Below, in pieces: positions 3,401 through 54,443 of a stretch of DNA of 64,000 bases (the first letter of the stretch is position 1; each line of letters opens with the position of its first letter). Under the pieces are notes generated by a model. It did not search any database and was not told the DNA's origin. It was given only the letters and a program-made list of their open reading frames with translations. The stretch comes from Thermoplasmata archaeon (GTDB lineage Archaea > Thermoplasmatota > Thermoplasmata > Halarchaeoplasmatales > Halarchaeoplasmataceae). Location: positions 8,045 through 72,044 of the forward strand of contig JBKHFH010000001.1 of the NCBI GenBank assembly GCA_046540335.1, written 5' to 3'. The translations under genes and the position numbers were made by a program.

Positions 3401-3775
3401 CAGTATCACTCTTTCTCTTTGTATCCGGTTTTAGAGAGTAATTCGTCCATCTGCGCCGAATTCACACATTCCATCGCAACCTGGAGAAGGATGGCTTTAA
3501 AGAACTCTTCACCTTGATGGCTCTTTTTACATTCTGGACATATCTTTTTTTGGGGTAAATGTTTCCTGAAATCGGGATCATCTTTCATTTCATTGTATAT
3601 CTCTTCGGCAAAATCGATCAATTCGTTTCTTAACCCGGAGTCTTTAACGGCTCTCGAAACTTCTCTTCCTATACCTCTCATGTACCTGCGAGTGAAAACG
3701 AGGTCTCCCCAAACATCATCTCTGGTACCTATAGGGTTGTCCTCGTACATCGAGATCTCCTGGCAGGGCTGGTAA
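3401..3775. repeat. Direct repeat block A (copy 1), about 93-95% identical to 8031-8405. Covers the 3' half of the regulator gene
   Basis: Read directly: long collinear matching stretches with scattered mismatches. Confidence 0.85.
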
Positions 3776-4107
3776 TAACAGTACGACCTCCTTCCCATCT
3801 TATTTTTTCTTTTCTCTTCAGCTTCACCTTCCGTGGGACGACCCGGTTCGCTTTCTACATCCCGTTTTTCCTTTTTCTTATTGATTATACCTTGTCTCCA
3901 GAGATCTTTCACCGCAGAATAAATCGTAGATAGAGGCTGCCCGGTCTCTTCGGATATCTCCTGAGCCGTTATGCCTTCAAGACCGTTATTTCTGATAGCC
4001 TTCAAGCAGGCCCAAGTAGCTTCATTTCCGAGTACGTCTGCAGCCATGTCGCTGCTTACGGGGAAAAAATTGAGGTATTCCTTTTTCTCCATCGTATCAC
4101 GTTTCAT
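3406..4107 (-). CDS. Transcriptional regulator: N-terminal winged-HTH, Lys/Glu-rich linker, C-terminal domain with a CPECKK motif. Divergently transcribed from the surface-protein gene
   Basis: wHTH-like segment GITAQEISEETGQPLSTIYSAVKDLWRQGII. A C-terminal 3' fragment of the gene is duplicated at 8031-8415. Confidence 0.6.
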   Translation of the reverse strand: MKRDTMEKKEYLNFFPVSSDMAADVLGNEATWACLKAIRNNGLEGITAQEISEETGQPLSTIYSAVKDLWRQGIINKKKEKRDVESEPGRPTEGEAEEKRKNKMGRRSYCYYQPCQEISMYEDNPIGTRDDVWGDLVFTRRYMRGIGREVSRAVKDSGLRNELIDFAEEIYNEMKDDPDFRKHLPQKKICPECKKSHQGEEFFKAILLQVAMECVNSAQMDELLSKTGYKEKE

Positions 4108-4357
4108 GATTATGTAATTATATTATTTTAAATTTTTGTAATAACAAAATTATGTACCTAACGACTCGAGATTGGGTTGATATATTTTCTAGGGCATGAG
4201 AATTAAGTGAGGTAGATAAAATGAGAAGCCTAAAAATCGGGTTAGGAAGGAACCGCATGAGAAGGGAAATGAACGTAGAGATCGAATTGCAAGACGACCA
4301 GAAAAAGAAAAACTTTTTACGAAGAAGCAATAAGAAACCGTAGATAAGGTGATTAAT
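4108..4357. promoter_or_regulatory. Divergent promoter region between the regulator and the surface-protein gene. AT-rich, and contains a 40-aa upstream ORF (4221-4343, MRSLKIGLGRNRMRREMNVEIELQDDQKKKNFLRRSNKKP)
   Basis: Intergenic between divergent genes. Duplicated nearly identically upstream of the paralogous gene at 8461-8715. GGTGA Shine-Dalgarno before the ATG at 4358. Confidence 0.4.
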
Positions 4358-4432
4358 ATGAAAAAGAAAATATTTGTGTTTACTATCGCGCTTTCTCTGC
4401 TGCTCAGCGGGACGCTTGTCGTGGTCGGAGGC
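4108..4432. repeat. Direct repeat block B (copy 1), about 98% identical to 8461-8790. Covers the promoter, upstream small ORF and first 25 codons (signal peptide) of the surface-protein gene
   Basis: Read directly: about 270 nt identical from atatattttctagggcatgag to gtcgtggtcggaggcga. Confidence 0.9.
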
Positions 4433-5254
4433 GAACCGCGAGAGATGAACGAAAGGACAGAGATAAATCAAGATAGAACACCGACGGCTGAAGCCGAAGT
4501 AGATGATTCTGATCTGGGAAATATTTCTAATGAATATCCGTTCAAGGATGAGTATCCATCGGTAGGAGAGCTTTATGGATGGTATGAGGATTTGGAGAAA
4601 GAATATCCAAATTTGATACAAAATCACAGCTATGGGGAATCTTACAAGGGTTTAGATCTTTATGCGTGGGAGATAACCGCCGATAATGATACTGTTGTAG
4701 AGGAGAAGCCCACGGTTTTGGTCGATGCAACTATACATGCAAGAGAATGGTCAACCCCGCAGGTAGCGGCTTACTTCACTTGGAGACTCTTAGATGAATA
4801 CGACACAAATGAGACCATCAACTGGATTGTGAACAATAGGAGGATCTTTGTAGTTCCGATGGTGAATCCCGATGGGTATATTTACGACGGAAATGGAACA
4901 TTAGAGGAAAGAGAATATTGGCGAAAAAATCGCAATGACTCGACTCCTACAGACGCTATCGGTGTTGATCTAAATAGAAATTGGGATACCCATTGGGTGA
5001 AAGGTGATGATGAACCTTCAAATGAGACATATCATGGAGATGCTCCTTTTTCAGAAGCTGAAACTTATCACCTCAAGGAATTCATGATCGAAAATGAGAT
5101 AGATTCATATCAGAACCTTCACTCTCACTGGGGAACTTTATTGATTCCCTCTTCTAATATGACCGATCCAACACCACATGATGATTGGTACAGGGGTACG
5201 GCAGAACACACGACTTCTTTAACGACTATGTTGGGAGAGGACGAACAGTACTAA
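4358..5254 (+). CDS. N-terminal part of a secreted M14 zinc-carboxypeptidase / GLUG-repeat / PGF-CTERM surface protein: signal peptide plus most of the M14 domain, ending at an in-frame TAA (5252-5254)
   Basis: Signal peptide MKKKIFVFTIALSLLLSGTLVVVGG. M14 motifs HAREW, NPDGY, DLNRNW, HSHW. The ORF track start is GTG 4349; the ATG is at 4358. The reading frame continues in-frame past the TAA. Confidence 0.7.
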   Translation: MKKKIFVFTIALSLLLSGTLVVVGGEPREMNERTEINQDRTPTAEAEVDDSDLGNISNEYPFKDEYPSVGELYGWYEDLEKEYPNLIQNHSYGESYKGLDLYAWEITADNDTVVEEKPTVLVDATIHAREWSTPQVAAYFTWRLLDEYDTNETINWIVNNRRIFVVPMVNPDGYIYDGNGTLEEREYWRKNRNDSTPTDAIGVDLNRNWDTHWVKGDDEPSNETYHGDAPFSEAETYHLKEFMIENEIDSYQNLHSHWGTLLIPSSNMTDPTPHDDWYRGTAEHTTSLTTMLGEDEQY

Positions 5255-5275
5255 TACGGTCAACCTTATGAGGAA

Positions 5276-7840
5276 TTGGGTTATAGTCCTCCAGGGGCAG
5301 CTGATAGTTGGGTCTATGATGAAATAGGTGCACAAGCATATACATATGAGATTTACACCGGTGAGTATGAAGAAGATTTTGCTGAAGGATTCTACCCTCC
5401 AAAAGAAGACATCATGACCATCAATGAAGATCTAGATGATTCTCTTATATATCAGACCAGAGTAGCTGATGCTGATCTGGGAGATGGAGAAGATTTAGAG
5501 CATCCACCAGTCCCTTATTTGGTCTACGGTACGCTGGAAAATGAGGGGGGCGATCATCTTTCAGATATAGAGATTGAAGTAGAGAATCAAGAGACTGGGG
5601 AGAATCTATCTGTTGAGACAAACAGCAAAGGTTATTACGAACTAAATCTTGCGAATTTGATTGACCATGGTTATGAAATCGGTGACACTCTTTGCATTCA
5701 AATCGATCCAGGTACCACCATGATGAATTTTGACGTTGACGGAAACTGGGGTAAAAGGATAGACCTTGAATATACAGAGGGACCTCAAGTTACCACCGAA
5801 AGCGTATCCGCCTTGACTAACGAATCTGCAGAGTTTGAAGGTAGAGTTGAACTTGGAAATATGAGTTCCGTAGAAGGTTATTTCCAGTACCGTATGGAAG
5901 GGGAAGAGAGTTGGCAAGAAAGTGAGATAGAAGTCATCGAAGAGAATCGAACGTATGATATGGTCATAGATGGTATGGAATCAGATGAGAGCTATGAGGT
6001 TAGAGCATCTATAAAGTGTAACGAAGAGGAACAAGATTTTGGTAGGATATTGAGTTTTATAACTACGATTCATACATTAAACCTTGACTCAAGTATCGGT
6101 GGTGAAGTGATCAAACCTGGAGAGAGTGAATTTGAATATACATACGGCTCTGAGGTGACTATCGAAGCTTCTGCTGAGGAAAATTATGATTTCATCGAAT
6201 GGATCGGTGATGTCGATACAGTAGAAGATACTGAATCATCAGAAACAACGGTCGGGATCACTGATGATATAGAGATAACAGCACTTTTCCAAACAGGTGA
6301 AGGGTCTGAAGGAGATCCATACTTGATCGAAAATAGTCATCACCTGCAGAAGATGGAAGACAATTTAGAAGCTCATTATGAATTGGCTACCGATATAGAT
6401 GCGAGTGAAACTGAAGACTGGAACGATGGAAGAGGATTCGATCCAGTAGGTGATCAATATAATCCATTCGAAGGCACATTTGATGGTGGTAGGTATAAAA
6501 TCGATGACCTTCATATTAACCAAGAAAATATGGAATATACAGGTCTTTTTGGAGTCATAGGTGAAGGTAGCGAGGTAACGAATTTGGCCCTTGTAAATAT
6601 AAATGTAACCGGGAGTCATACTAGATCACATTGGGTCGGTGGACTTGCAGGAGGAAATTTAGGATTGATAAATAACACTTCCGTCTCAGGAGATGTGAAT
6701 AGTGGTGACGTCGCTGGTGGACTGATAGGGCAGGGCCCAGGCACAGTCAAAAATTCATATTCGACAGGGGATGTGACTGGAGCGCGATTTGTAGGAGGGT
6801 TGCAGGGAACGAGCAGCGGAAGTATCTTTACTTCTTACTCTTCTGCGAGAGTTGAAGGGACCGGTTCCGTCGGTGGCATTTTAGGTGGAAGTTGGGGAGT
6901 TATCGAGAACAGTTATGCTACAGGAGAAGTTGTCGGAGAAGATAATGTAGGTGGATTAGTTGGTCAGATAGGTATCCGGGTTAGAGGTTACAGTGATAGT
7001 GGCGAAGTTATCGATTCGTATTCTATAGGTAATGTTTCGGGTGATGATGAAGAAACACTCGGAGGTTTAGTAGGTTTCATAGAGCTAGGAGAGGTAACAG
7101 GTTCCTTCTGGAACGTAGAAACATCGGGGCAAGACGAATCTGATGGAGGTACTGGGCTACCCACTGCAGAGATGGTCAGAAGAGAGACTTTCACCGATGC
7201 AGGTTGGGATCTCGAAGAGAATTGGAATATCATCGAAGATGAAACTTATCCTTTCCTGCAGTGGCAAAAGGAAGATACATATCCCTACGCACCTGAACTA
7301 TACGAATTGACGATAAACATCGAAGGACAAGGCACGGTAGAAGTCTATGGAGAAGAAGTAGAAGACGGATGGACTCAAGAATACGTAGAAGGAACGGAGT
7401 TGACCCTCGAAGCGATCCCAGATGAAGGTTACGAGTTCGATGAATGGACAGGGACGGATCAGACAGGTGATGAGATAAACATAACGATGGACGAAGATAA
7501 AGATATCACGGCCCACTTCGAGGAGATCACATACAACCTGACATTTGTGGTAACAGACGAAGAGGGTGAGGCAATCGAGGGAGCAACAGTCACTGTAAGT
7601 GATGAGGAAGTGGAGACAAATGGGAGTGGCGAAGCGACCTTTGAACTTACGCAGGGAGATTACGACTACGAGGTCACCCATGACGACTATGAAAAAGAAA
7701 ATGGTATGATAGATAGCCTTGATGAAGAGAAGAAGGAAACTGTTGAACTTGAAGAGAGTAATGGAAGTCCCGGGTTTACTGTAGTACTGCTAGCACTCGG
7801 TGCGGTTATAGCCGTTGCGATCTATAAAAAGAAACGTTGA
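5276..7840 (+). CDS. C-terminal part of the same protein (same frame as 4358-5254): end of the M14 domain, transthyretin-like regulatory domain, InlB-B-repeat-like domains, DIDxSxTxxW domain, about 8 GLUG repeats, PGF-CTERM sorting signal
   Basis: Sequence from 5255 (YGQPYEELGYSPPGAADSWVYDE...AYTYEIYTGE) completes the M14 fold with Tyr248/Glu270 equivalents. GGLxG repeats. C-terminus PGFTVVLLALGAVIAVAIYKKKR. Confidence 0.7.
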   Translation: MGYSPPGAADSWVYDEIGAQAYTYEIYTGEYEEDFAEGFYPPKEDIMTINEDLDDSLIYQTRVADADLGDGEDLEHPPVPYLVYGTLENEGGDHLSDIEIEVENQETGENLSVETNSKGYYELNLANLIDHGYEIGDTLCIQIDPGTTMMNFDVDGNWGKRIDLEYTEGPQVTTESVSALTNESAEFEGRVELGNMSSVEGYFQYRMEGEESWQESEIEVIEENRTYDMVIDGMESDESYEVRASIKCNEEEQDFGRILSFITTIHTLNLDSSIGGEVIKPGESEFEYTYGSEVTIEASAEENYDFIEWIGDVDTVEDTESSETTVGITDDIEITALFQTGEGSEGDPYLIENSHHLQKMEDNLEAHYELATDIDASETEDWNDGRGFDPVGDQYNPFEGTFDGGRYKIDDLHINQENMEYTGLFGVIGEGSEVTNLALVNINVTGSHTRSHWVGGLAGGNLGLINNTSVSGDVNSGDVAGGLIGQGPGTVKNSYSTGDVTGARFVGGLQGTSSGSIFTSYSSARVEGTGSVGGILGGSWGVIENSYATGEVVGEDNVGGLVGQIGIRVRGYSDSGEVIDSYSIGNVSGDDEETLGGLVGFIELGEVTGSFWNVETSGQDESDGGTGLPTAEMVRRETFTDAGWDLEENWNIIEDETYPFLQWQKEDTYPYAPELYELTINIEGQGTVEVYGEEVEDGWTQEYVEGTELTLEAIPDEGYEFDEWTGTDQTGDEINITMDEDKDITAHFEEITYNLTFVVTDEEGEAIEGATVTVSDEEVETNGSGEATFELTQGDYDYEVTHDDYEKENGMIDSLDEEKKETVELEESNGSPGFTVVLLALGAVIAVAIYKKKR

Positions 7841-8030: not shown

Positions 8031-8405
8031 TCTTTCTATTTATATCCGGTTTCAGAGAGCAAATCGTCCATCTGCGCCGAATTCACACACTCCACCGCCA
8101 CCTGGATAGAATGGCTTTAAAGAACTCTTCACCTTGATGGCTCTTTTTACATTCTGGACATATCTTTTTTTGGGGTAAATGTTTCCTGAAATCGGGATCA
8201 TCTTTCATTTCATTGTATATCTCTTCGGCAAAATCGATCAATTCGTTTCTTAACCCGGACTCTTTGACAGCTCTCGAAACTTCTCTTCCTATACCTCTCA
8301 TGTACTCGCGTGTGAAAACGAGGTCGCCCCAAACATCATCTCTGGTACCTATGGGGTTGCCCTCGTCTATCGAGATCTCCTGAGACGTGATAGCGGAGTA
8401 ATATT
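8031..8405. repeat. Direct repeat block A (copy 2)
   Basis: Collinear match to 3401-3775. Confidence 0.85.
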
Positions 8406-8415: not shown

Positions 8416-8460
8416 CCCATGCAGTTTTAGGCGGAGATCTTCTTTTTAATTCTATCAGTT

Positions 8461-8790
8461 TTCCTAATTCTGTAATTACATTATTTTATATTTTTGTAAT
8501 AACAAAATTATGTACCTAACGACTCGAGAGTGGGTTGATATATTTTCTAGGGCATGAGAATTAAGTGAGGTAGATAAAATGAGAAGCCTAAAAATCGGGT
8601 TAGGAAGGAACCGCATGAGAAGGGAAATGAACGTAGAGATCGAATTGCAAGACGACCAGAAAAAGAAAAACTTTTTACGAAGAAGCAATAAGAAACCGTA
8701 GATAAGGTGATTAATATGAAAAAGAAAATATTTGTGTTTACTATCGCGCTTTCTCTGCTGCTCAGCGGGACGCTTGTCGTGGTCGGAGGC
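8461..8790. repeat. Direct repeat block B (copy 2): promoter, upstream small ORF and signal-peptide codons
   Basis: About 98% identical to 4108-4432. Confidence 0.9.
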
Positions 8791-10346
8791 GAGGTGATGG
8801 ATGAAAGTGTTAGTAAAGATTTTAAAGAAGTTGAATCTGAGGCTACAGAAATCCAGGATTGGCACGACTTAGACGAGATAAGAGATGACTTAAGCAGCGA
8901 CTACGTTCTAGTTGACGAACTTGATGAAATACAGATGGTTATGAGGACTACAATGCTCAAAGAGAAGATCATGAAGTAGTATATTTTGCAGGATCAGACG
9001 AACACTGGAAAGACGGCGATACTATAGAAATAGAATATGGTGAAGATGAATATGATTCTGTTCTATCAGTCGAAGATGAAGAGGGCAACCCGATCAGTTA
9101 TACGGTAGAGCATCCTACAATAACAATAGAGGTGGACACCAGAGAAAGCCGTTTAGGTGTAAACTTCGAGAACGCCGTCGTAGGTTGGGAACCGATAGGG
9201 AACGATGAGAATCCATTTAACGGTACTTTCGACGGTAACGGTCATGATATAAGTGATTTAAATATAAAACGCGGTGGAACGTCCGGTATCGGAATATTTG
9301 GTTTTACCGGTCAAGAAGTTGAAATCAGAGATATCGGTCTTGTCGACTTAGAGGTGAAAGGATTAGGATACGTAGGTGGACTCGTGGGCTATAACAAGGG
9401 CAATATTTCCGATTCCTATGTAACAGGTGAGGTGAGCGGAGTTAGTTCTGTAGGCGGATTAGTTGGACTAAGCTTAGAAGGCGAGGTGAAGACCTCATAT
9501 GCGACAACTGATGTGAGCGGTATGGAGGGAATTCATGTAGGAGGACTCGTGGGACTAAGCCATAGTACGGTAAACGCATCGTATGCGACCGGTGACGTTA
9601 GTGGAGAGGGTCATTTAGGAGGACTCGTGGGACTAAGCCATAGTACGATATACGGATCGTATGCGACCGGTGATATTAACGGTGAAGAAAATGTGGGAGA
9701 ACTTGTAGGAAATAATGCAGGAATCTCGAAAGATTCTATTGAGAATTCCTATGCGACTGGTAACGTTAACGGTGAAGAATTTGTAGGAGGTCTCGTTGGA
9801 CATAACAAAGCTAACATTGAGAATTCGTATGCATCTGGGGACGTTAACGGCGAAAAATTTGTAGGAGGATTAGTAGGATTAAATTCTGCTGGACCTGGCC
9901 CAGGTTACCCTGATATGCCTTTTCCTTCAACTGTCAAAACGTCTTATGCGTCCGGTGAAGTGACCGGTGAAGAAAATGTGGGAGGACTAGTCGGATTGAG
10001 CGAGTCAGGCAATGTCACCCATTCTTACTGGGATATCGAAACTTCTGGAATTGAGGAGAGCGACGGTGGAACAGGCCTAACAACGGATGTGATGACAGGT
10101 GAAGAAGCTCCTAAAAACATGGACGGTTTTGACTTCGAAGAGGTCTGGGAGACTGTTGGGGAGGATGATGAAGATGCTGAAGAGAACGGCTATCCTATCT
10201 TACAGGAGTTGGACAGAGAAGAACAGCTCGAGGCTCAAAATATTTATGGAGATGATGACGGGATCCCAGGATTCACATCGTTACTCCTCTTAGTAGCTTC
10301 GATCATCGCAGTAGCTATCTACCAGAAGAAAAGTAAAAAGCGGTGA
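8716..10346 (+). pseudogene. Paralogous GLUG-repeat / PGF-CTERM surface protein without an M14 domain. Disrupted by a frameshift near 8930-8980: frame-1 ORF 8707-8979 carries the signal peptide, and the frame-0 ORF opens at 8928
   Basis: Identical signal peptide. N-terminal piece IQDWHDLDEIRDDLSSDYVLVDELD parallels IENSHHLQKMEDNLEAHYELATDIDAS of the paralog. The downstream frame carries WEPIGNDENPFNGTFDGNG, about 10 GGLVG repeats, and the C-terminus GIPGFTSLLLLVASIIAVAIYQKKSKKR. Confidence 0.65.
9540..9695 (+). repeat. Intragenic tandem duplication (2 x 78 nt = 2 x 26 aa GLUG units, near identical)
   Basis: ggaggactcgtgggactaagccatagtacg... occurs at 9540 and again at 9618 with few substitutions. 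Confidence 0.7.
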
Positions 10347-12581: not shown

Positions 12582-12600
12582 AGTGAATTGATAAAAGCAG

Positions 12601-12685
12601 CGCCGAGAAGGGGATTCGAACCCCTGTGGTGCAAGGCACCACGAGATCTCCAATCTCGCGCCGTACCAGGCTAGGCTATCTCGGC
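12601..12685 (-). tRNA. tRNA-Ser (anticodon GGA), class II
   Basis: Minus strand reads GCCGAGATAGCCTAGCCTGGTA...CGAGA-TTGGAGA-TCTCG, then a long variable arm TGGTGCCTTGCACCACA, T-arm GGGGTTCGAATCCCC, and acceptor TCTCGGC. Confidence 0.85.
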
Positions 12686-44150: not shown

Positions 44151-44474
44151 ATGATTGAAAGAGAGGTGTCGATATTGGCAGAGAAAGGATGTGAGGAGTG
44201 CGATTATTTCGTGAAGCACGATTCTTATGATTTCATAGGGATGTGTATCAACAAGGACAGGTTGATAACCAAGAAAGAGATATGTCCCGGTCAAAAAGAT
44301 ATTGATAGGGAAAGATTGAAGGAGATACTGAAGGAGAAGGGGTGGATCTATTGTATAACCTGTAGCGAACCGATATTCTCATTGGATGAGTTGGAAGATC
44401 ATAAGAAAGGCAGACTGATCGAGAAGCGTTTCTCGGACGACGTAGCTGCAGAGGATAGTCCAACTGCTGATTGA
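44151..44474 (+). CDS. Small Cys-containing hypothetical protein (107 aa), immediately upstream of the OFOR genes
   Basis: Six Cys including CEEC and CITC pairs. Overlaps the next gene by 4 nt. Confidence 0.4.
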   Translation: MIEREVSILAEKGCEECDYFVKHDSYDFIGMCINKDRLITKKEICPGQKDIDRERLKEILKEKGWIYCITCSEPIFSLDELEDHKKGRLIEKRFSDDVAAEDSPTAD

Positions 44475-46348
44475 GGGATAATATGACTGAGAAGCTGACT
44501 ATTATCATGGGGGGAGCTCAGGGCTCGGGGTTGGAAACGACTATCCAAATATTGAGTGCCGCTTTTGCTTCATCAGGTCATGGATTTCTAGCTGATAGGG
44601 AGTACTTTTCGAATATCAAAGGAAGACACAGTTATGTTCACGCAGAGATATCTTCCGAAAAAATACCCCGCTCCGTAGAATCGAAGATCGACCTTTTGGG
44701 TTGTATGGACGCTGAAACACTGTTCACACACTTTGATGATATCAAAGAAAGCGGTTTTCTTATCTACGATACTTCAACAGAGGGAAAGACCCAGGACAAG
44801 ATAAAAAGTTTAGAAAATAAATTGAGAGAGAGATTGAAAAAAAGGTTTGAAGAACTAGACATCGAAGGAACGATCTCTTCGGTTGTGGAGTATCTCAAAG
44901 AAGAAAAAGATGTAAGTGTTGTAGAACTCGATTATCCCGAAATACTCAAAGAACTCGAGAAAGAACATGAAATATCCTCCTCACAGGCCTCCCGGTACGT
45001 CAGTTCGATACTGATAGGGGCTGTCGCAGGGCTCATGGGCATAGACAAGTCGATGGTCGATAAAGGCGTAGAAAGAAAATTTGAAGGGAAAGAGAAGATA
45101 GCGGATCAGAACAAGTGGTTGATCGATAAAGTAGCCGAGTTAGTAAAAGAAGAACATGATTCTCCTCTTGATCTTGAGACATCGCAAATAGAAGAAGACG
45201 AGTTCATGATGGTCAACGGTAACGAAGCGACCGGCATGGGAAAGATAGTTGGAGGTATGAGATTTCAGAGCTATTATCCGATCACTCCCGCCGCCGATGA
45301 GAGCTTCTTCATAGAGCAGCAGCTTGGCGAGGAACAAGATTCAGACGTTCTAGTGTTCCAGACTGAAGATGAATTGGCAGCTATAAATTCCTGTATCGGA
45401 GCAGCGCTAACAGGGACTAGGAGCGCGACTGCGACCAGTGGACCCGGCTTTGCTTTGATGGTCGAAGGTCTTGGATGGGCGGGGATATGTGAAGTTCCGA
45501 TCGTAATCACTTACTACCAGAGAGGAGGTCCAAGTACCGGTCAACCCACTAGAGGGAGCCAGGACGATCTTATGAATGCTCTTTACTCTTCACACGGCAG
45601 TTTTCCACGCATCGTTTTAGCTTCAGGTGACCATGAGGAAGCTTTCAAAGACGCAGTTAAAGCGTTCAATCTCGCAGAGAGATACCAAACGCCGGTTATC
45701 CACCTATTAGATAAGTTTCTAGCCAACTTCGTTAAGACGATCCCGATCCCCGATATGAAGGACTTGAAGATTGATAGGGGAGATCTTTCTGAAGGTGACG
45801 GATATAAAAGGTTCGATGACGGTCCTATCTCTCCAAGAGCGTTTTTGGGAGAAGAAGTGATGTGGTACACTGGCAGTGAACATGACGAGGAGGGCAACGT
45901 GAGCGAAGACCCAGTTAACAGAGTAAACATGCACGAGAAGAGGATGATGAAATTGGAGATCGCCGCCGATGAGATCGAAGATAGAGCGGTTTATTACGGC
46001 CCTGAAGATGCAGAATACCTACTGGTCGGATGGGGCTCAGTGAAAGGTACTGTCCTGGACGCGATCGAACATCTCGATGAAGATATTGGCTATCTTCACT
46101 TCCGGATATTTTCGCCATTTCCGTTTGAAAAAACAATACCGCATCTTGAAGGAAGAGAGAAGTTGATAGCTGTGGAGCACAGTTATTCACCACGTATCTC
46201 AGAGGTGATAAGTTTGAATACAGATCACCAGATAGATAACGAGATAGTAAAATATACCGGTCGGCCTATTTATAGGGACGAGTTCATCGAGTCGCTGAAA
46301 AACATAATAGACGGCTCTGATAGGGAGGTGCTGACACATGGTCCGTGA
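44471..46348 (+). CDS. 2-oxoacid:ferredoxin oxidoreductase, fused gamma-alpha subunit (two-subunit OFOR type)
   Basis: N-terminal gamma-like domain (IIMGGAQGSGLETT), then alpha domain (GNEATGMGKIVGGMRFQSYYPITPA). Confidence 0.85.
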   Translation: MRDNMTEKLTIIMGGAQGSGLETTIQILSAAFASSGHGFLADREYFSNIKGRHSYVHAEISSEKIPRSVESKIDLLGCMDAETLFTHFDDIKESGFLIYDTSTEGKTQDKIKSLENKLRERLKKRFEELDIEGTISSVVEYLKEEKDVSVVELDYPEILKELEKEHEISSSQASRYVSSILIGAVAGLMGIDKSMVDKGVERKFEGKEKIADQNKWLIDKVAELVKEEHDSPLDLETSQIEEDEFMMVNGNEATGMGKIVGGMRFQSYYPITPAADESFFIEQQLGEEQDSDVLVFQTEDELAAINSCIGAALTGTRSATATSGPGFALMVEGLGWAGICEVPIVITYYQRGGPSTGQPTRGSQDDLMNALYSSHGSFPRIVLASGDHEEAFKDAVKAFNLAERYQTPVIHLLDKFLANFVKTIPIPDMKDLKIDRGDLSEGDGYKRFDDGPISPRAFLGEEVMWYTGSEHDEEGNVSEDPVNRVNMHEKRMMKLEIAADEIEDRAVYYGPEDAEYLLVGWGSVKGTVLDAIEHLDEDIGYLHFRIFSPFPFEKTIPHLEGREKLIAVEHSYSPRISEVISLNTDHQIDNEIVKYTGRPIYRDEFIESLKNIIDGSDREVLTHGP

Positions 46349-47243
46349 GTATGGCACTGACAACTGGATAGATTGGTGTCCAGGCTGTGGTGATTTCGGG
46401 ATAGTTTCCAGCATATACAGAGCTTTTTCCGAGCTAGAACTAGAGCCCGAGATGACGGTTGTTGTCTCTGGCATTGGCTGTTCCGGTAAGATACCGCACT
46501 TCATAAACGTCAACGGAGTACATACGCTTCACGGCCGTGCTATACCCTTCGCCACCGGTATCAAGATGTCAAATCCCAACTTAGAAGTGGTCGTTAACGG
46601 AGGAGACGGCGACCTCCTAGGTATAGGCGCAGGACACTTTGTAGCGTTAGGCAGAAGGAATCTGAATGTTTTAGTGATGATGCATAATAATAGAGTATAT
46701 GGACTGACTAAAGGACAGGCCTCACCCACTTTGGCGAGGGATGAGCAGACAAAAGCATTGAACTCGCCGAACGTACAAGACAACCTTGAGCCGATCTCCC
46801 AGGCGCTAGTTTCCGGATACACACACGTGGCTAGAAGTTTCGCTATGGACTCGGATCATCTTAAGGATGCGATTAAAGCGGGGATAGAACATGAAGGTGC
46901 AGCATTTTTGGATATACTCCAGCCCTGTGTGACTTATAACGACATCCATACATCAGAATTCTTCAATGAACATATCGAAAAACTAGAGGACTGGGATTCA
47001 GAAGGTGTTGAAGAGCCCGCCGAGGCTATCACCAAAGCTAAGATAGATGAGAAGATACCCCTTGGACTTTTCTACAAAGACACCTATAAACCCACCTTTA
47101 GAGAAAGGATAACTGAGCAGATTTCCAGCTACGCTGAAAGTCCTCCTGCAAAGAAAAAGATCGAACAAGATGGAGAACCTATTATAGATCAGGATAGATT
47201 AAGATCCATGTTCGATGAGAATCTGATAAAAAGAGAAAAGTGA
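46338..47243 (+). CDS. 2-oxoacid:ferredoxin oxidoreductase beta subunit (TPP-binding)
   Basis: CPGCGDFG ... GIGCSGK ... GGDGDLLGIG TPP motif. Confidence 0.88.
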   Translation: MVREYGTDNWIDWCPGCGDFGIVSSIYRAFSELELEPEMTVVVSGIGCSGKIPHFINVNGVHTLHGRAIPFATGIKMSNPNLEVVVNGGDGDLLGIGAGHFVALGRRNLNVLVMMHNNRVYGLTKGQASPTLARDEQTKALNSPNVQDNLEPISQALVSGYTHVARSFAMDSDHLKDAIKAGIEHEGAAFLDILQPCVTYNDIHTSEFFNEHIEKLEDWDSEGVEEPAEAITKAKIDEKIPLGLFYKDTYKPTFRERITEQISSYAESPPAKKKIEQDGEPIIDQDRLRSMFDENLIKREK

Positions 47244-49367: not shown

Positions 49368-50216
49368 GTGATACACATGAACCTTGCTTTTGAAATTCTA
49401 CTTTGGGTTTCACTCTTACTCCTATTCCTGGGGTTCATTTGGGACTATCACAAACATATCCATAGAGCCGCAGGATATGTTCTCTATGGTTTATTCTGGA
49501 TTACCAGTATCCCATCTTATCTGAAGATCGACGATTATTTCAATGCCTTCTTCACGGCAATAGCACTGCCCGCCTTCATCTACGTGGCTTATCATGAATA
49601 TCTCTCGAAGAAGTGGGATGAGGATCCAGAGGTGATGCGGTTTTTAGCGGGAGGCGCTTCGATAGCTTCTCTGATATATTTCGGTTTCCACCGTATACCC
49701 TTATTGAGTGGTTTTTTGATAAAATCTGTTACAGAGCAGACCGTATGGGCGATGAATGCATTAGGATACGACTTCTCCGCTGGAGCGATTGATTATGCTG
49801 GAAATCCGTTATTTTATCGGACCAGTTCAGAATCGATAAATGTCCCTGTCAACGGAACGAATATCGTGATCATACTTGCTTGTACCGGGCTTCAGGCTAT
49901 CGCCGTTGCAGCTTCTTTCATTTACAGCACCGTCACGGAGAATATAAAGAAAATAAAGAGCCTGAGCGTACTCATCCCTACGATCTATATCGCTAACATC
50001 TTCCGGAATATGATGGTGCTATATCTTGTAGAGGAAGGGATATTCTCTTTCGAAGTAGCTCACAACCAAGTCGCGAAGACTTTCTCTGTACTCGTTATGA
50101 TAGTACTCTTTATAGTAGTCTTTGAGATCATGCCCAAATTTTATGATAATATAATGGAAACGGCAAAACTGCCTCTAAGAGAACCTACCCACCAGAAACA
50201 ACAGGAACGACCTTGA
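49368..50216 (+). CDS. artA: Archaeosortase A (exosortase/archaeosortase family transpeptidase)
   Basis: About 280-aa polytopic membrane protein with a Cys in the ACTG context (ILACTGLQ) and a downstream Arg-Asn (IANIFRNMM), as in exosortase/archaeosortase active sites. PGF-CTERM substrates are encoded in the same window. Confidence 0.65.
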   Translation: MIHMNLAFEILLWVSLLLLFLGFIWDYHKHIHRAAGYVLYGLFWITSIPSYLKIDDYFNAFFTAIALPAFIYVAYHEYLSKKWDEDPEVMRFLAGGASIASLIYFGFHRIPLLSGFLIKSVTEQTVWAMNALGYDFSAGAIDYAGNPLFYRTSSESINVPVNGTNIVIILACTGLQAIAVAASFIYSTVTENIKKIKSLSVLIPTIYIANIFRNMMVLYLVEEGIFSFEVAHNQVAKTFSVLVMIVLFIVVFEIMPKFYDNIMETAKLPLREPTHQKQQERP

Positions 50217-50382
50217 GACTCATCCCCTCTTCCAATTTCTCTTTAATAGGTAACGGTTTTCCTTCTGAGATCACGACGACCGAGTCCAGATGATGATCTA
50301 GTCTTTCTACTACAGTCGATACTTTACTATCTTCAGGTATCTCTAACTCTCCTTCACCTTCGATCTTCACTTTAACGGTCAT
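50185..50382 (-). CDS. Ubiquitin-like small archaeal modifier protein / MoaD-ThiS family beta-grasp protein ending in Gly-Gly
   Basis: 65 aa with C-terminus ...LKVVPVVSGG. Last gene of the 4-subunit OFOR operon. Confidence 0.65.
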   Translation of the reverse strand: MTVKVKIEGEGELEIPEDSKVSTVVERLDHHLDSVVVISEGKPLPIKEKLEEGMSLKVVPVVSGG

Positions 50383-50459: not shown

Positions 50460-50987
50460 CTACTTATTGACCTCTTCATAGCCCTTCTTTACAGCCTCGA
50501 TATTGATGCCCTTGTACTTTTCGGGAAACTCTTCACTGACCGTTTTTTTCAGAGCTTCTATGTCGATATTCTCAGAGACTCCAGCCAAAGAGCCAAGTAA
50601 AACTACGTTGGCAGCCTTAGAAGTCGCTATATTTTCTGCGATCTCCCCCGCAGGTATCTCATACACAGTCCCTTGTACTTCCGGCACGCTATGGACTCTC
50701 GAACTGTCGACTATCAGAACATCACATTGTTCAGCGGTATCAGCCCACTCATCTAATGTGTCTTGATACATAACAACCAGATAATCCGGAATATCGATGA
50801 CAAGTTCATCTAACTCTTCTTCATCGGCGATCACATCGGAATACGCTATACCGCTTCTCACAGCTGCTGAATAAGACCTCTGCTGCGCTACATGATAACT
50901 CTGTTCGATAGAGAGAGACTTACCGAGTATGGTCCCGGCACGGACCGTTCCCTGACCGGCCCATCCGCCGATCCTTATCTTCATCAT
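50460..50987 (-). CDS. 2-oxoacid:ferredoxin oxidoreductase gamma subunit
   Basis: IRIGGWAGQGTVRAGTILGK motif. Confidence 0.85.
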   Translation of the reverse strand: MMKIRIGGWAGQGTVRAGTILGKSLSIEQSYHVAQQRSYSAAVRSGIAYSDVIADEEELDELVIDIPDYLVVMYQDTLDEWADTAEQCDVLIVDSSRVHSVPEVQGTVYEIPAGEIAENIATSKAANVVLLGSLAGVSENIDIEALKKTVSEEFPEKYKGINIEAVKKGYEEVNK

Positions 50988-51781
50988 CTCGGCTCACCTC
51001 CGGCTTCTTCGATCTGTCTGTAAATCTCCTCGGTGAGTTCGGGTCTGTCTACCTCGGACAGAGTACCTACGTATATCTTGTCTGTTCCTTCTTCTTTACT
51101 TGTGTTTTCTTTGTACCATTGGAGCATCTCTTTTCCGTCCATACCCATTTTTTTACCTTTCCTAGTAGGACACTGGGTAAGGACTTCTATGAAGGAGAAA
51201 CCATCGGTCTCCATCGCTTTCTTCACTTCTTCTATCAGCTCTTTCATATGGTATGTAGTCCATCGAGCTACATGACCAGCCCCTGCTGCCTTAACCACTT
51301 CTGCGGCCTCGAAACTCGAAGAAGGATTTCCATATGGAGTGGTCAACGTGTCTTCACCGTGTTCCGTTGTCGGTGCGACCTGTCCGCCCGTCATCGCATA
51401 TAAGCCGTTGTTTATCATTAGTACGTTCATATCTATATTGTTTCTAGCTCCGTGGAGTAGATGATTTCCACCTATCCCGGCACAGTCACCGTCACCGGAG
51501 ACGACCATTACTTCTAGGTCTTTATTGCCTATCTTGACCCCGGTAGCGAAAGCGATCGCTCTTCCGTGTGTGGTATGCAGGGTATCGACTCTCCAGTGAG
51601 GTGAAGGGATCCAGGCGGCACAACCTATTCCGCTCACCGCTACTATATTCTCCTTAGAAACATCGCTCTCTTCGACCGCCCTTGACATCGAATTCAGTAC
51701 CATACCTCCGCCACACCCGGGGCAGAAAGGAGAAGGATGTCTTCTGATGTATTTTTCTTTTATATCTTTAGCTTTGATCAT
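50984..51781 (-). CDS. 2-oxoacid:ferredoxin oxidoreductase beta subunit (TPP)
   Basis: CPGCGGG ... GIGCAAW ... SGDGDCAGIGGNHL. Confidence 0.88.
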   Translation of the reverse strand: MIKAKDIKEKYIRRHPSPFCPGCGGGMVLNSMSRAVEESDVSKENIVAVSGIGCAAWIPSPHWRVDTLHTTHGRAIAFATGVKIGNKDLEVMVVSGDGDCAGIGGNHLLHGARNNIDMNVLMINNGLYAMTGGQVAPTTEHGEDTLTTPYGNPSSSFEAAEVVKAAGAGHVARWTTYHMKELIEEVKKAMETDGFSFIEVLTQCPTRKGKKMGMDGKEMLQWYKENTSKEEGTDKIYVGTLSEVDRPELTEEIYRQIEEAGGEPR

Positions 51782-52902
51782 TCTAACACCTCCTTTATCC
51801 TATCATATATCTTGTCTATAGTTGGCAGGGAATTCAACCGGTCAAAGATGTGTAGACCCCCGAATGGAACGGCTCTTTCGACTTCTATCCTGTAGCCTCT
51901 CAAGGATAATTCCGCGAGAAGGATCTCAGAGTTCTCACCGATCTCTTTTAACCTTTCTTGAGGACTCGGCCACATGACTTTAGGTCGGAAGAATCCGACA
52001 TCGTGACCTTCTTCCCTCGCCTTTTTTACGGCTCCTCTCGCTGGTCTCGACATCGAACCGTAAGAAACCACTACCAGATCAGCATCTTCAACGTGTTTTT
52101 CTTCCCAATCTTCGATATCTTCTCGGTTATCTTCTATCTTTGAAACCAATCTTCTAACAAGGTTATCTTGGGCTTCAAAACTTGAGGTGTCTCTAGTTCC
52201 GTCACCAAGGTGAGTCGAGCCTGTAACTAACAACTCTTCTCCATCACCAAAATCTGGCATAGGGGGAACATGGTCCTCCCGATCAGTATCGAAGAACTCC
52301 TTTTCGCCCTCCTCGGGTCTTCTCCTCTCTACAGTTTCTACATCTTCTCTTATCTCCACTTTTTCTCTCATGTGTCCGACTCCAGCGTCAGCTAGGAGTA
52401 TCACTGGAGTCCTGTAACTTTCAGCCAGATTGAACGCCCTTATAGTTAAGTCGAACATCTCCTGTACCGAATTCGGTGAAAGAGCGATTATCTCATAATC
52501 TCCCTGACTTCCGAAGCGGGACTGCATAACGTCTCCCGTTCCAGGTTTAGTAGCCTGCCCCGTAGAGGGTCCGGCTCGCTGAACGTTTACTATCACACAA
52601 GGTGTTTCGGTCATAACCCCGTAACCCAAGTTCTCCTGCATCAGACTGAATCCTGGACCCGACGTGGCGGTCATACTTTTTTGACCCGTCCAGGATGCAC
52701 CTATTATAGAAGCGATACTGCCTATCTCATCTTCCATTTGAACGAATCGCCCCCCGACTTTAGGTAGTTCTCTAGACAAGTGATTCATGATCTCCGAAGC
52801 GGGTGTGATCGGATAACCGGCGTAAAAACCACACCCTGCTCTTAAAGCCCCTTCTGCGCAGGCTATATTTCCTTCCATGAAATACTCTCCAGATTCTTTC
52901 AT
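51778..52902 (-). CDS. 2-oxoacid:ferredoxin oxidoreductase alpha subunit
   Basis: GNIACAEGALRAGCGFYAGYPITPASE motif. Confidence 0.88.
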   Translation of the reverse strand: MKESGEYFMEGNIACAEGALRAGCGFYAGYPITPASEIMNHLSRELPKVGGRFVQMEDEIGSIASIIGASWTGQKSMTATSGPGFSLMQENLGYGVMTETPCVIVNVQRAGPSTGQATKPGTGDVMQSRFGSQGDYEIIALSPNSVQEMFDLTIRAFNLAESYRTPVILLADAGVGHMREKVEIREDVETVERRRPEEGEKEFFDTDREDHVPPMPDFGDGEELLVTGSTHLGDGTRDTSSFEAQDNLVRRLVSKIEDNREDIEDWEEKHVEDADLVVVSYGSMSRPARGAVKKAREEGHDVGFFRPKVMWPSPQERLKEIGENSEILLAELSLRGYRIEVERAVPFGGLHIFDRLNSLPTIDKIYDRIKEVLE

Positions 52903-53126
52903 TCTTCTTCCACCTCTATTGCAAAATCGGGACAGTACAGCTCACATCTGCGACAAACGATACATTCATCTTTAGCTACAACTTCTGGAAAATAATTTCC
53001 ATATTGGTTCAGATCATCCGATTCATCGAGAACATCTTTTGGACAGATCTCTATACAGATACCGCAGCCCGTACAGAGCTCCCTATCTATCTTAATCTTG
53101 CGAGCTTCAGCCATCCTATCAATCAA
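52899..53126 (-). CDS. 2-oxoacid:ferredoxin oxidoreductase delta subunit (2x[4Fe-4S] ferredoxin)
   Basis: CTGCGICIEICP and CIVCRRCELYCP motifs. Confidence 0.85.
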   Translation of the reverse strand: MIDRMAEARKIKIDRELCTGCGICIEICPKDVLDESDDLNQYGNYFPEVVAKDECIVCRRCELYCPDFAIEVEEE

Positions 53127-53168: not shown

Positions 53169-54443
53169 TCAGGAGGGCGGCCATCTACTCCTTTTCAGTA
53201 GATTTTTCTGCTGTTGAGCCTGCGGAGATTTAGGATCAGTTTCAGTTCCGCATCTCTTACATCTGAGTTTATTTTCATCTGTGTATTCCGACGTGGTATA
53301 TCCACAGTTCGGACATGAGTAACCTATAGTGACACCGGCCGTATGGTCTTCCGCCTCGCCAATCAATTCACTCTCTCTTTTATGGGTCCCCTCAGGTTTC
53401 TCTTCTTCTTGCCCTGACGTGATCCATCTATTGAATTTTTTGATATAAGCGTAGGTATAATAGGCTCCAACAGCCATCCAGAATAAAATAATCAATGATA
53501 AAATAGTATTGAAGTTCGGAATATACATCATCTTATCAGGTACAGATAGGAAGTCCCAAACGAAATGTACCAATATTGCAGAATGTAGACCGTCTTTGAC
53601 GAACAGATAGCCGAAGAATATCCCTGCGGGCAGTACCTGGATGACCTTCAACGGGTCCCAGTTCCATCCTGGGAGGTGCGCCATGGCGAAGATTATAGTA
53701 GATATTATGACCAGAATTACCGAAAAACGATCTTCAAAACCGAATCCGCCGAGTGGATACTTTCTGAGTTTTTTCCTTCCTTTAACAGCTGCGTATATGA
53801 CCATTGGCAGCCCTATGTAAGCCACTCTGACGATTATCTCCTCCCATACCGCGGCCTCCGTGAGACTGAAAATCCTTCTCCAGAGAGGCATCTCTAAAAA
53901 TTGACCAGGTGTTTCTATCCCTCTGCCGGTGAACTCAAGCAGTATAACGTAAAGGTAACTGATGAATATGAGGGCAGCAAAGACGGTCGCCAATCTCAGT
54001 ATCGGAGATGAAGTCTCGCTGTAATTTTTCTCTAGTTGATCGAATTTTCCGTCCAAAACAGATTTGATGTATGATACCAATCCGTCCCAACCCGTATAGA
54101 ATATCATCGCATAGGATAGTAATATAGATACGACCAAGAATAGGTAGTAAATTGCGAACGCATAACCGGTAAGTTCCGTTATCCTGAGTCCAAATGGGAT
54201 CAAGATGAACAATATGGTCCCACTGTTCAAGGTTTCTGGATATATCAAATCAGTCGAAAGGAGCAGGAGTCCAGTATTGAGTACGAGGTAACCTAGAAAT
54301 AATACTAGAGCGATAGTTGTTACCAACGCCTTCAATTTTCTTGTAATGCCTTTTTTATCGGCCGTCCTTTTAGTCGCAACGGTATAGCCGCAGTTAGGGC
54401 ATCTGCTGCCAGTCATCTCCGATGAACATAGTGGACATTCCAT
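53169..54443 (-). CDS. CPBP-family (CAAX/Abi-type) intramembrane glutamic metalloprotease with zinc-ribbon domains at both termini
   Basis: Motif 1 EEIIVR, motif 2 FAMAHL, motif 3 HFVWD. N-terminal CPLC...CPNCG and C-terminal CPNCG...CKRCG. Confidence 0.7.
   Translation of the reverse strand: MECPLCSSEMTGSRCPNCGYTVATKRTADKKGITRKLKALVTTIALVLFLGYLVLNTGLLLLSTDLIYPETLNSGTILFILIPFGLRITELTGYAFAIYYLFLVVSILLSYAMIFYTGWDGLVSYIKSVLDGKFDQLEKNYSETSSPILRLATVFAALIFISYLYVILLEFTGRGIETPGQFLEMPLWRRIFSLTEAAVWEEIIVRVAYIGLPMVIYAAVKGRKKLRKYPLGGFGFEDRFSVILVIISTIIFAMAHLPGWNWDPLKVIQVLPAGIFFGYLFVKDGLHSAILVHFVWDFLSVPDKMMYIPNFNTILSLIILFWMAVGAYYTYAYIKKFNRWITSGQEEEKPEGTHKRESELIGEAEDHTAGVTIGYSCPNCGYTTSEYTDENKLRCKRCGTETDPKSPQAQQQKNLLKRSRWPPS

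Follow-up and report, generated by a model that had tools for sequence, protein, structure and literature searches.

Does this stretch of archaeal DNA encode an archaeosortase A (ArtA) together with the surface proteins that such an enzyme would process? Protein sorting by ArtA through PGF-CTERM signals has been described since 2012 and has been characterized experimentally in Haloferax volcanii. By analogy with the H. volcanii enzyme, the ArtA examined here would be a polytopic membrane cysteine transpeptidase. Its targets would be secreted proteins that end in a PGF motif, a transmembrane (TM) helix, and a basic cluster, which it would cut close to the PGF motif and leave covalently lipid anchored at the cell surface. 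The DNA analyzed here, a stretch of 64 kb referred to as the window, comes from an organism related to "Candidatus Natronoplasma" and "Candidatus Saliniplasma." A sequence-only reading of the window had paired an artA candidate with two genes for PGF-tailed proteins with GLUG repeats and had seen in them a direct test of substrate-enzyme pairing. The features discussed below are collected in Table 1.

Table 1. Positions of the features discussed, numbered from the first nucleotide of the 64-kb window
Feature	Position	Strand	Remarks
GLUG gene 1 (M14 carboxypeptidase/InlB-B-repeat/GLUG/CarboxypepD_reg)	4349..7840	+	Signal peptide, PGF tail; interrupted by TAA at 5252..5254
PGF-type C-terminal sorting signal 1 (candidate)	7766..7837	+	SPGFTVVLLALGAVIAVAIYKKKR; end of ORF 5276..7840
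GLUG gene 2 (GLUG-repeat surface-protein gene)	8707..10346	+	PGF tail; frameshift at about 8929 in the A-run GATGAAAT
PGF-type C-terminal sorting signal 2 (candidate)	10263..10343	+	IPGFTSLLLLVASIIAVAIYQKKSKKR; end of ORF 9132..10346
300-nt direct repeat	4081..4380 and 8439..8738		95% identical; upstream region and signal-peptide start of both GLUG genes
Two-gene OFOR (fused gamma-alpha, then beta)	44471..47243	+	Pfam POR, POR_N, PFOR_II, TPP_enzyme_C, PFO_beta_C
artA (archaeosortase A)	49368..50216	+	GTG start; 282-aa reading, used for residue numbers
Cys172 codon (motif LACTG)	49881..49883	+	Predicted catalytic nucleophile, from conservation; equivalent to H. volcanii Cys173 via P0066 C174
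Arg213 codon (motif NIFRN)	50004..50006	+	Equivalent to H. volcanii Arg214; P0066 R215 in the same column
His232 codon (motif AHNQVAKT)	50061..50063	+	Third conserved polar residue, from conservation
SAMP2/ThiS-like gene, 65 aa, ends VVSGG	50185..50382	-	Convergent with artA, overlaps its last 32 nt
Four-gene OFOR (delta, alpha, beta, gamma)	50460..53126	-	Pfam Fer4, POR_N, TPP_enzyme_C, POR

The Cys and Arg-Asn motifs that had drawn attention to the 282-aa ORF are present in its translation, as ...IILACTGLQ... (Cys172) and ...ANIFRNMM... (Arg213-Asn214). The profile search that the sequence-only reading had proposed as a check was run against NCBIfam. On TIGR04125, the archaeosortase A model, the window protein reached 143.4 bits (cut-off of 75, E value of 8.8e-42), with residues 11 to 266 aligned to profile positions 1 to 260 of 271. 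None of the other archaeosortase and exosortase subfamily models of NCBIfam reached its cut-off with this protein, and all remained far below (heimosortase, or heimdallarchaeosortase, 41.2 versus 130; ArtH, 41 versus 200; paceosortase, 26 versus 80; ArtE, 22 versus 95; Xrt models likewise below cut-off). The signature region is common to the window protein and bacterial exosortases (EpsH/XrtA): residues 168 to 256 scored 48.8 bits on the exo_archaeo signature TIGR04178 (cut-off of 23), and the conserved Cys/Arg/His are shared. In contrast to those enzymes, however, the window protein reached only 15.9 bits on Pfam Exosortase_EpsH (gathering score of 25.7) and fell far below the cut-offs of the exosortase subfamily models, and the signal found with it is PGF, not PEP. 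Judged by these profiles, the ORF encodes archaeosortase A, as had been proposed.

This identity was already known, since the exact protein carries that name in public databases. A search of 5.8 billion proteins returned an identical 279-aa protein from NCBI (GCA_046539565.1), entered as "MAG: archaeosortase A [Thermoplasmata archaeon]," and 66 close homologs also named archaeosortase A. Homologs with 50 to 78% identity belong to "Ca. Natronoplasma," "Ca. Saliniplasma," and other halophilic Thermoplasmatota, and a scan of GTDB species representatives found related genes throughout the Thermoplasmata and in marine Poseidoniia. Because NCBI starts the identical protein at ATG 49377, 9 nt downstream of GTG 49368, and homologs are 277 to 281 aa long, this ATG is probably the true start of artA.

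The sequence-only reading had further expected a Cys-Arg-Arg triad, to be confirmed by alignment with H. volcanii ArtA (HVO_0915). That protein belongs to the same TIGR04125 family and is likewise a polytopic membrane protein; its Cys173, Arg214, and Arg253 are critical for activity by mutagenesis (PMC9263693). We placed these positions via a proxy, the haloarchaeal-type sequence P0066, which has C174, R215, and R254 at identical spacing. P0066 is named "archaeosortase A (PGF-CTERM-specific)" by JGI. The Cys (173 in H. volcanii, 172 in the window protein) and the first Arg (214 and 213, respectively) are common to both enzymes, but the Arg253 column is occupied in the window protein by Asn233, a variable position next to His232, and no Arg lies near Asn233. 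The expected triad was thus borne out at two of its positions and failed at the third.

Conservation across the family points to His232 in place of the second Arg. Cys172 is conserved in all 84 ArtA sequences from Thermoplasmatota and elsewhere and in 151 of 154 family representatives; Arg213 is conserved in 83 and 152 and His232 in 82 and 129 of the same two sets, in which N210 is invariant and K237 near-invariant. Among the 154 representatives the third site takes two covarying states, His-x...Lys (129 sequences) and Asp-Arg...Gln (about 20), and the sequences in the latter state are all of the longer haloarchaeal type, with Asp-Arg at columns 232-233. Because the Asp-Arg state is confined to those roughly 20 haloarchaeal-type sequences, the alignment marks an Arg at the third site as a feature of the haloarchaeal lineage that does not define the ArtA family. 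By the same alignment, the conserved polar set of the window enzyme is Cys172-Arg213-His232, the majority state of the family and its predicted triad. PMC4343526, citing Haft et al. 2012, likewise gives the conserved set of the whole family as Cys/Arg/His. Since most ArtA sequences have His at the third site, Cys-Arg-Arg as defined in H. volcanii is unfit to serve as a criterion of ArtA membership.

The window enzyme differs from the haloarchaeal type in several other respects. It is about 24 to 27% identical to P0066, it has 279 to 282 aa compared with 303 aa, and it does not have an insertion of roughly 20 residues that separates motifs 2 and 3 in the haloarchaeal type. At the third site, His232-Asn233...Lys237 stands against Asp-Arg253...Gln. 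The window enzyme has the His-type third motif, the majority form among the 154 representatives. Its length of 279 aa is similar to that of methanogen-type ArtA, for example, the 277 aa encoded by Methanosarcina acetivorans artA (834 bp, located next to pssA/pssD) (PMC7157517).

No solved structure of an ArtA homolog was found. An AlphaFold2 model of the window protein (pLDDT of 90.5) is a polytopic helical bundle, in agreement with the description of the ORF product as a polytopic membrane protein. In the model, C172, R213, and H232 stand at the ends of helices 170-187, 192-222, and 228-254 and on the same side of the bundle, and a K/R-rich loop (residues 188 to 191) and the C terminus lie opposite to them. 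Read with the positive-inside rule, this arrangement of helices would put the three residues on the presumed extracytoplasmic face.

We then asked which proteins of the window carry a signal that such an enzyme might recognize. ORFs from all six frames of the 64-kb window were scanned for PG[FYWLM] within 40 residues of the C terminus, and only two real ORFs ended with PGF, a hydrophobic stretch, and a basic cluster. Both carry Glug repeats by Pfam. The tails, which the sequence-only reading had described as PGF plus TM plus KKKR/KKSKKR, could be read directly and have this tripartite architecture: SPGF-TVVLLALGAVIAVAIY-KKKR in tail 1 and IPGF-TSLLLLVASIIAVAIYQ-KKSKKR in tail 2. PGF-CTERM substrates of H. 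volcanii (the S-layer glycoprotein and HVO_0405) likewise combine PGF, a TM helix, and a basic cluster, and the N-terminal signal peptide of H. volcanii-type substrates is also found in the ancestral form of the window GLUG genes. The tails are conserved in homologs: 12 of 57 archaeal M14 homologs end in this type of tail, and the tail of P0217, an intact homolog, is nearly the same as tail 2.

The PGF-CTERM model itself, TIGR04126, had also been put forward as a check, and on the GLUG tails it gave a negative outcome. With a cut-off of 24.5, tail 1 scored 8.6 bits and tail 2 did not match; nine tails from clade homologs (11 tails in all with the two of the window) scored 11.7 bits or less. 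The Lys-rich tails are in this respect unlike H. volcanii PGF-CTERM. Models for other signals came closer. Tail 1 scored 20.8 bits on Heimdall-CTERM (cut-off of 24) and 16.9 bits on Loki-CTERM (cut-off of 19.9), tail 2 passed Loki-CTERM with 20.9 bits, and of the further clade tails two passed Loki-CTERM and one passed Heimdall-CTERM, with none near the TIGR04126 cut-off. Such matches would be expected if the enzyme belonged to another archaeosortase class, one paired with Loki- or Heimdall-CTERM signals and not with PGF-CTERM. We consider this extremely unlikely, given that the ArtA model assigns the enzyme 143 bits and the heimdallarchaeosortase and ArtH models, whose cut-offs are 130 and 200, only 41 each, and given that the tails contain a literal PGF motif. 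Because the window ArtA fails the heimdallarchaeosortase model and the other subfamily models, we put the cross-matches down to composition: the tails are Lys/Ile-rich here and Arg/Ala-rich in haloarchaea, which probably explains them. Short C-terminal HMMs are strongly swayed by composition.

The low TIGR04126 scores would also fit a second alternative, in which the PGF tails simply hold their proteins in the membrane as ordinary C-terminal anchors and escape processing, with ArtA working solely on other proteins, for example, an S-layer protein. Consistent with this, substrates are rarely found near artA, with 2 PGF-tailed ORFs within 10 kb of the gene across 80 related loci (about 20 kb each). 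However, PGF placed directly before the helix recurs on proteins of different architectures in species sharing 45 to 76% identity, a conservation that is expected of a recognition motif and not of a plain anchor, and permutation of PGF blocks processing in H. volcanii according to work cited in PMC9263693. We therefore regard unprocessed anchors as very unlikely. The architecture of the tails and their conservation across differently built proteins of the clade support a role as sorting signals. We propose that the cognate signal of the clade is a Lys-rich PGF variant, [IT]PGF[TS]...AVAIYKKK, found on M14 peptidases and GLUG surface proteins. Halophilic Thermoplasmata-type tails, being Lys-rich, go unnoticed by TIGR04126, and putative ArtA substrates of halophilic Thermoplasmatota are therefore underannotated. 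One substrate candidate of the clade is labeled by PGAP only as "InlB B-repeat-containing protein."

Neither of the two tail-bearing genes in the window is intact as assembled. In GLUG gene 1, the two halves (4349..5254 and 5255..7840) lie in one frame and are separated by the TAA at 5252..5254. The first half encodes the signal peptide and a Peptidase_M14 domain (181.6 bits), and the Pfam match extends as far as the stop codon, which falls inside this domain. The position of the TAA is occupied by Ser in 43 of 56 homologs (QYSYGQP), and a change from TCA to TAA requires a single base. Relatives carry intact, full-length homologs of this gene, among them P0217 (1286 aa), P0218, and P0219. Recoding of the stop codon was rejected as an explanation, as the TAA occurs just once, where a Ser codon is conserved, and in-frame splits are absent from all other genes.

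GLUG gene 2 is interrupted differently. Its first ORF, 8707..8979, starts MINMKKKIFVFTIALSLLLSGTLVVVGGE and is in another frame than the ORF 8928..10346, and the homolog P0225 aligns over the junction in two frames. The gene encodes eight Glug repeats (105.8 bits by Pfam), and its signal peptide is identical to that of GLUG gene 1. The 300-nt repeat shared by the 5' regions of both genes indicates a local duplication. As a result of the frameshift in this gene and the TAA in the other, the signal peptides that begin at 8707 and 4349 are cut off from their tails; intact homologs carry signal peptide and PGF tail on one polypeptide.

Sequencing or assembly errors, or minority variants, could in principle produce the same picture, in which case both GLUG genes would be intact and would encode current ArtA substrates. 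The nature of the lesions is compatible with this reading: the frameshift falls in a short A-run (GATGAAAT), the TAA is one base away from the conserved Ser codon, and apart from the lesions each gene has long open frames, a signal peptide, and an undamaged tail. Against it, the NCBI MAG GCA_046539565.1, a different assembly (departing from the window by 6 SNPs over 9.5 kb and by 10 over 20.8 kb, with a different contig structure), has the same two disruptions and identical split gene calls, and the 854-aa downstream fragment is also recorded in a Logan read-level assembly. In addition, a generally error-prone assembly should have left further clearly split genes in the window, and none were seen. 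Look-ups of the 87-aa N-terminal fragment of GLUG gene 2 and of a 526-aa protein encoded mid-window returned no record. We consider intact genes unlikely. Since the same lesions are present in a second, near-identical but independent assembly, they are probably real, and both GLUG genes of the window are probably pseudogenes, one through a nonsense mutation and the other through a frameshift.

The proposal that these genes allow a direct test of substrate-enzyme pairing is weakened accordingly. Both are disrupted, neither yields a PGF-tailed product with a signal peptide as assembled, and the two substrate candidates of the window are unsuitable for a pairing test. With both PGF-tailed genes inactivated, the current substrates of ArtA would be encoded elsewhere in the genome. 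Overall, we hold it to be very probable that the window encodes a functional ArtA of a halophilic Thermoplasmata archaeon that recognizes a Lys-rich PGF signal, that the substrate genes in the window have been inactivated, and that the substrates in current use lie outside it.

The artA gene and the GLUG tails co-occur in the window but do not form a cluster. The GLUG genes are about 39 to 44 kb from artA on one molecule, and in GCA_046539565.1 they are on different contigs from artA. A tRNA-Ser gene (12600..12685) spans the point in the window where the contig of the NCBI MAG ends. We considered whether the window might be a concatenation of contigs and rejected this, given the SNPs relative to the NCBI MAG and the read-through of tRNA-Ser at the MAG contig end. 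That substrates adjoin artA as a rule was also rejected, the 80 related loci having only the two PGF tails.

Around artA, the genes are ordered as follows: the two-gene OFOR, a GyrI-like gene, an amidohydrolase gene, artA, the SAMP2/ThiS-like gene, the four-gene OFOR, and a gene for an Rce1-like intramembrane protease. The placement of artA between two OFOR operons and convergent with a SAMP-like gene, as previously described for the window, was read in the sequence. A functional link of artA with OFOR or with the amidohydrolase was rejected, as neither is a conserved neighbor in 25 related loci. A motif scan of the 64-kb window for CDP-alcohol phosphatidyltransferase detected no pssA or pssD; linkage of the two to artA is seen in Methanosarcina but not in haloarchaea (PMC7157517).

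The convergent neighbor is a different case. The SAMP2-like protein scored 28.0 bits on Pfam SAMP2 (cut-off of 27) and 23.8 bits on Pfam ThiS (cut-off of 22.5) but 26.2 bits on the NCBIfam SAMP2 equivalog model, whose cut-off is 70. Its codons for VVSGG and the stop are opposite the artA codons for ...THQKQQ.... Of 25 loci from the halophilic clade (ArtA 50 to 60% identical), 19 have the convergent, 3'-overlapping pair; in those 19 loci, an ORF of 63 to 100 aa ending in VVSGG overlaps the last 23 to 32 nt of artA, and the pair is kept although the flanking genes on both sides differ between loci. It is absent from 55 more distant loci of Thermoplasmatota and Poseidoniia. In comparison with methanogen-type ArtA, the window enzyme thus has, instead of pssA/pssD, a 3' overlap with a SAMP2-like gene that is restricted to the halophilic Thermoplasmata clade.

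On the simplest reading, the overlap itself makes the two genes hard to separate; a functional or antisense link between them would be speculative. A bolder view would be that the halophilic Thermoplasmata have a distinct flavor of ArtA, combining a His-type enzyme, a Lys-rich PGF signal beyond the reach of present curated models, and a real coupling to the SAMP2-like gene for a ubiquitin-type modifier. If so, the overlap could reflect antisense regulation or a functional link between sampylation and the anchoring of surface proteins, and not plain genome compaction; we think this very improbable.

The window had also been described as part of an acidic proteome. Its 39 proteins are moderately acidic, with a median pI of 5.09 and a D+E content of 16.9% compared with 11.4% for K+R.

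Columns equivalent to residues 232, 233 and 237 of the window's archaeosortase A (ArtA), which span the third catalytic motif, were compared in a family alignment of 154 representatives. The motif takes two covarying states. His-x...Lys is found in 129 representatives, while Asp-Arg...Gln, the haloarchaeal type, is found in about 20 and includes the position of Haloferax volcanii Arg253. From the aligned sequences, these two covarying states across the family indicate that the experimentally tested Arg is a lineage-specific replacement.

In halophilic Thermoplasmata, 19 of the 25 loci compared have a convergent SAMP2/ThiS-like gene that overlaps the last 23 to 32 nt of artA, although the flanking genes differ among them (window and loci L007-L029). 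The convergent gene was absent from 55 more distant loci. The overlap may also explain the conserved P-x-H-Q-K-Q-Q motif at the ArtA C terminus.

The Lys-rich PGF tails of halophilic Thermoplasmatota score at most 11.7 bits on the curated PGF-CTERM model TIGR04126 (cut-off, 24.5) and instead reach or pass the cut-offs of the Loki-CTERM and Heimdall-CTERM models. Such tails will be missed or mislabelled by automated annotation; PGAP describes one PGF-tailed protein only as an InlB B-repeat protein.

Both PGF-tailed GLUG genes of the window are disrupted (see table). In the first, a TAA falls inside the M14 domain at a position where Ser is conserved in 43 of 56 homologs, and a single base change suffices to convert TCA to TAA. 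The split is also present in GCA_046539565.1, a separate NCBI assembly of a near-identical strain, from which the window's strain differs by ~0.05% SNPs; the window's assembly is the more contiguous of the two. In the second gene, the exon-like signal-peptide start (8707..8979) and the body (8928..10346) lie in different frames, the site of the frameshift is a GATGAAAT run, and one homolog matches both sides of it, each in its own frame.

The upstream regions and signal peptides of both genes are covered by a direct repeat. Two triplets of SNPs relative to the NCBI assembly (~3554..3580 and ~8174..8200) are spaced exactly 4620 nt apart, which suggests that this repeat is part of a longer duplication, now partly decayed, to which the regulator fragment also belongs.

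Features in the region of the GLUG genes and around artA
Feature	Position	Strand	Remark
TrmB/Lrs14-like regulator gene	3406..4107		
300-nt direct repeat	4081..4380 and 8439..8738		95% identity
In-frame TAA	5252..5254		Splits M14 carboxypeptidase/GLUG/PGF-tail surface-protein gene 4349..7840 (+)
PGF tails	7766..7837 and 10263..10343		Compared with homologs P0217-P0259
Regulator gene fragment (TrmB/Lrs14-like)	8083..8301	-	
Second GLUG/PGF-tail gene	8707..10346	+	Frame junction ~8925..8931
tRNA-Ser(GGA) gene	12600..12685	-	Coincides with end of NCBI contig JBKHGS010000028.1
SAMP2/ThiS-like gene	50185..50382	-	Tail VVSGG; convergent with artA, 3′ ends overlapping
Rce1-like (CPBP) intramembrane protease	53169..54443	-	424 aa

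The Rce1-like protease gene lies directly upstream of the four-gene 2-oxoacid:ferredoxin oxidoreductase cluster, and its product has a C-terminal CxxC zinc-binding-like segment with a weak match to ECs_2282. Separately, two contigs with Thermoplasmata-type or Poseidoniia-type artA (L014 and L046) carry the labels "Candidatus Aenigmatarchaeota archaeon" and "Candidatus Neomarinimicrobiota bacterium"; each is probably a MAG contig that was mis-binned or mislabelled.
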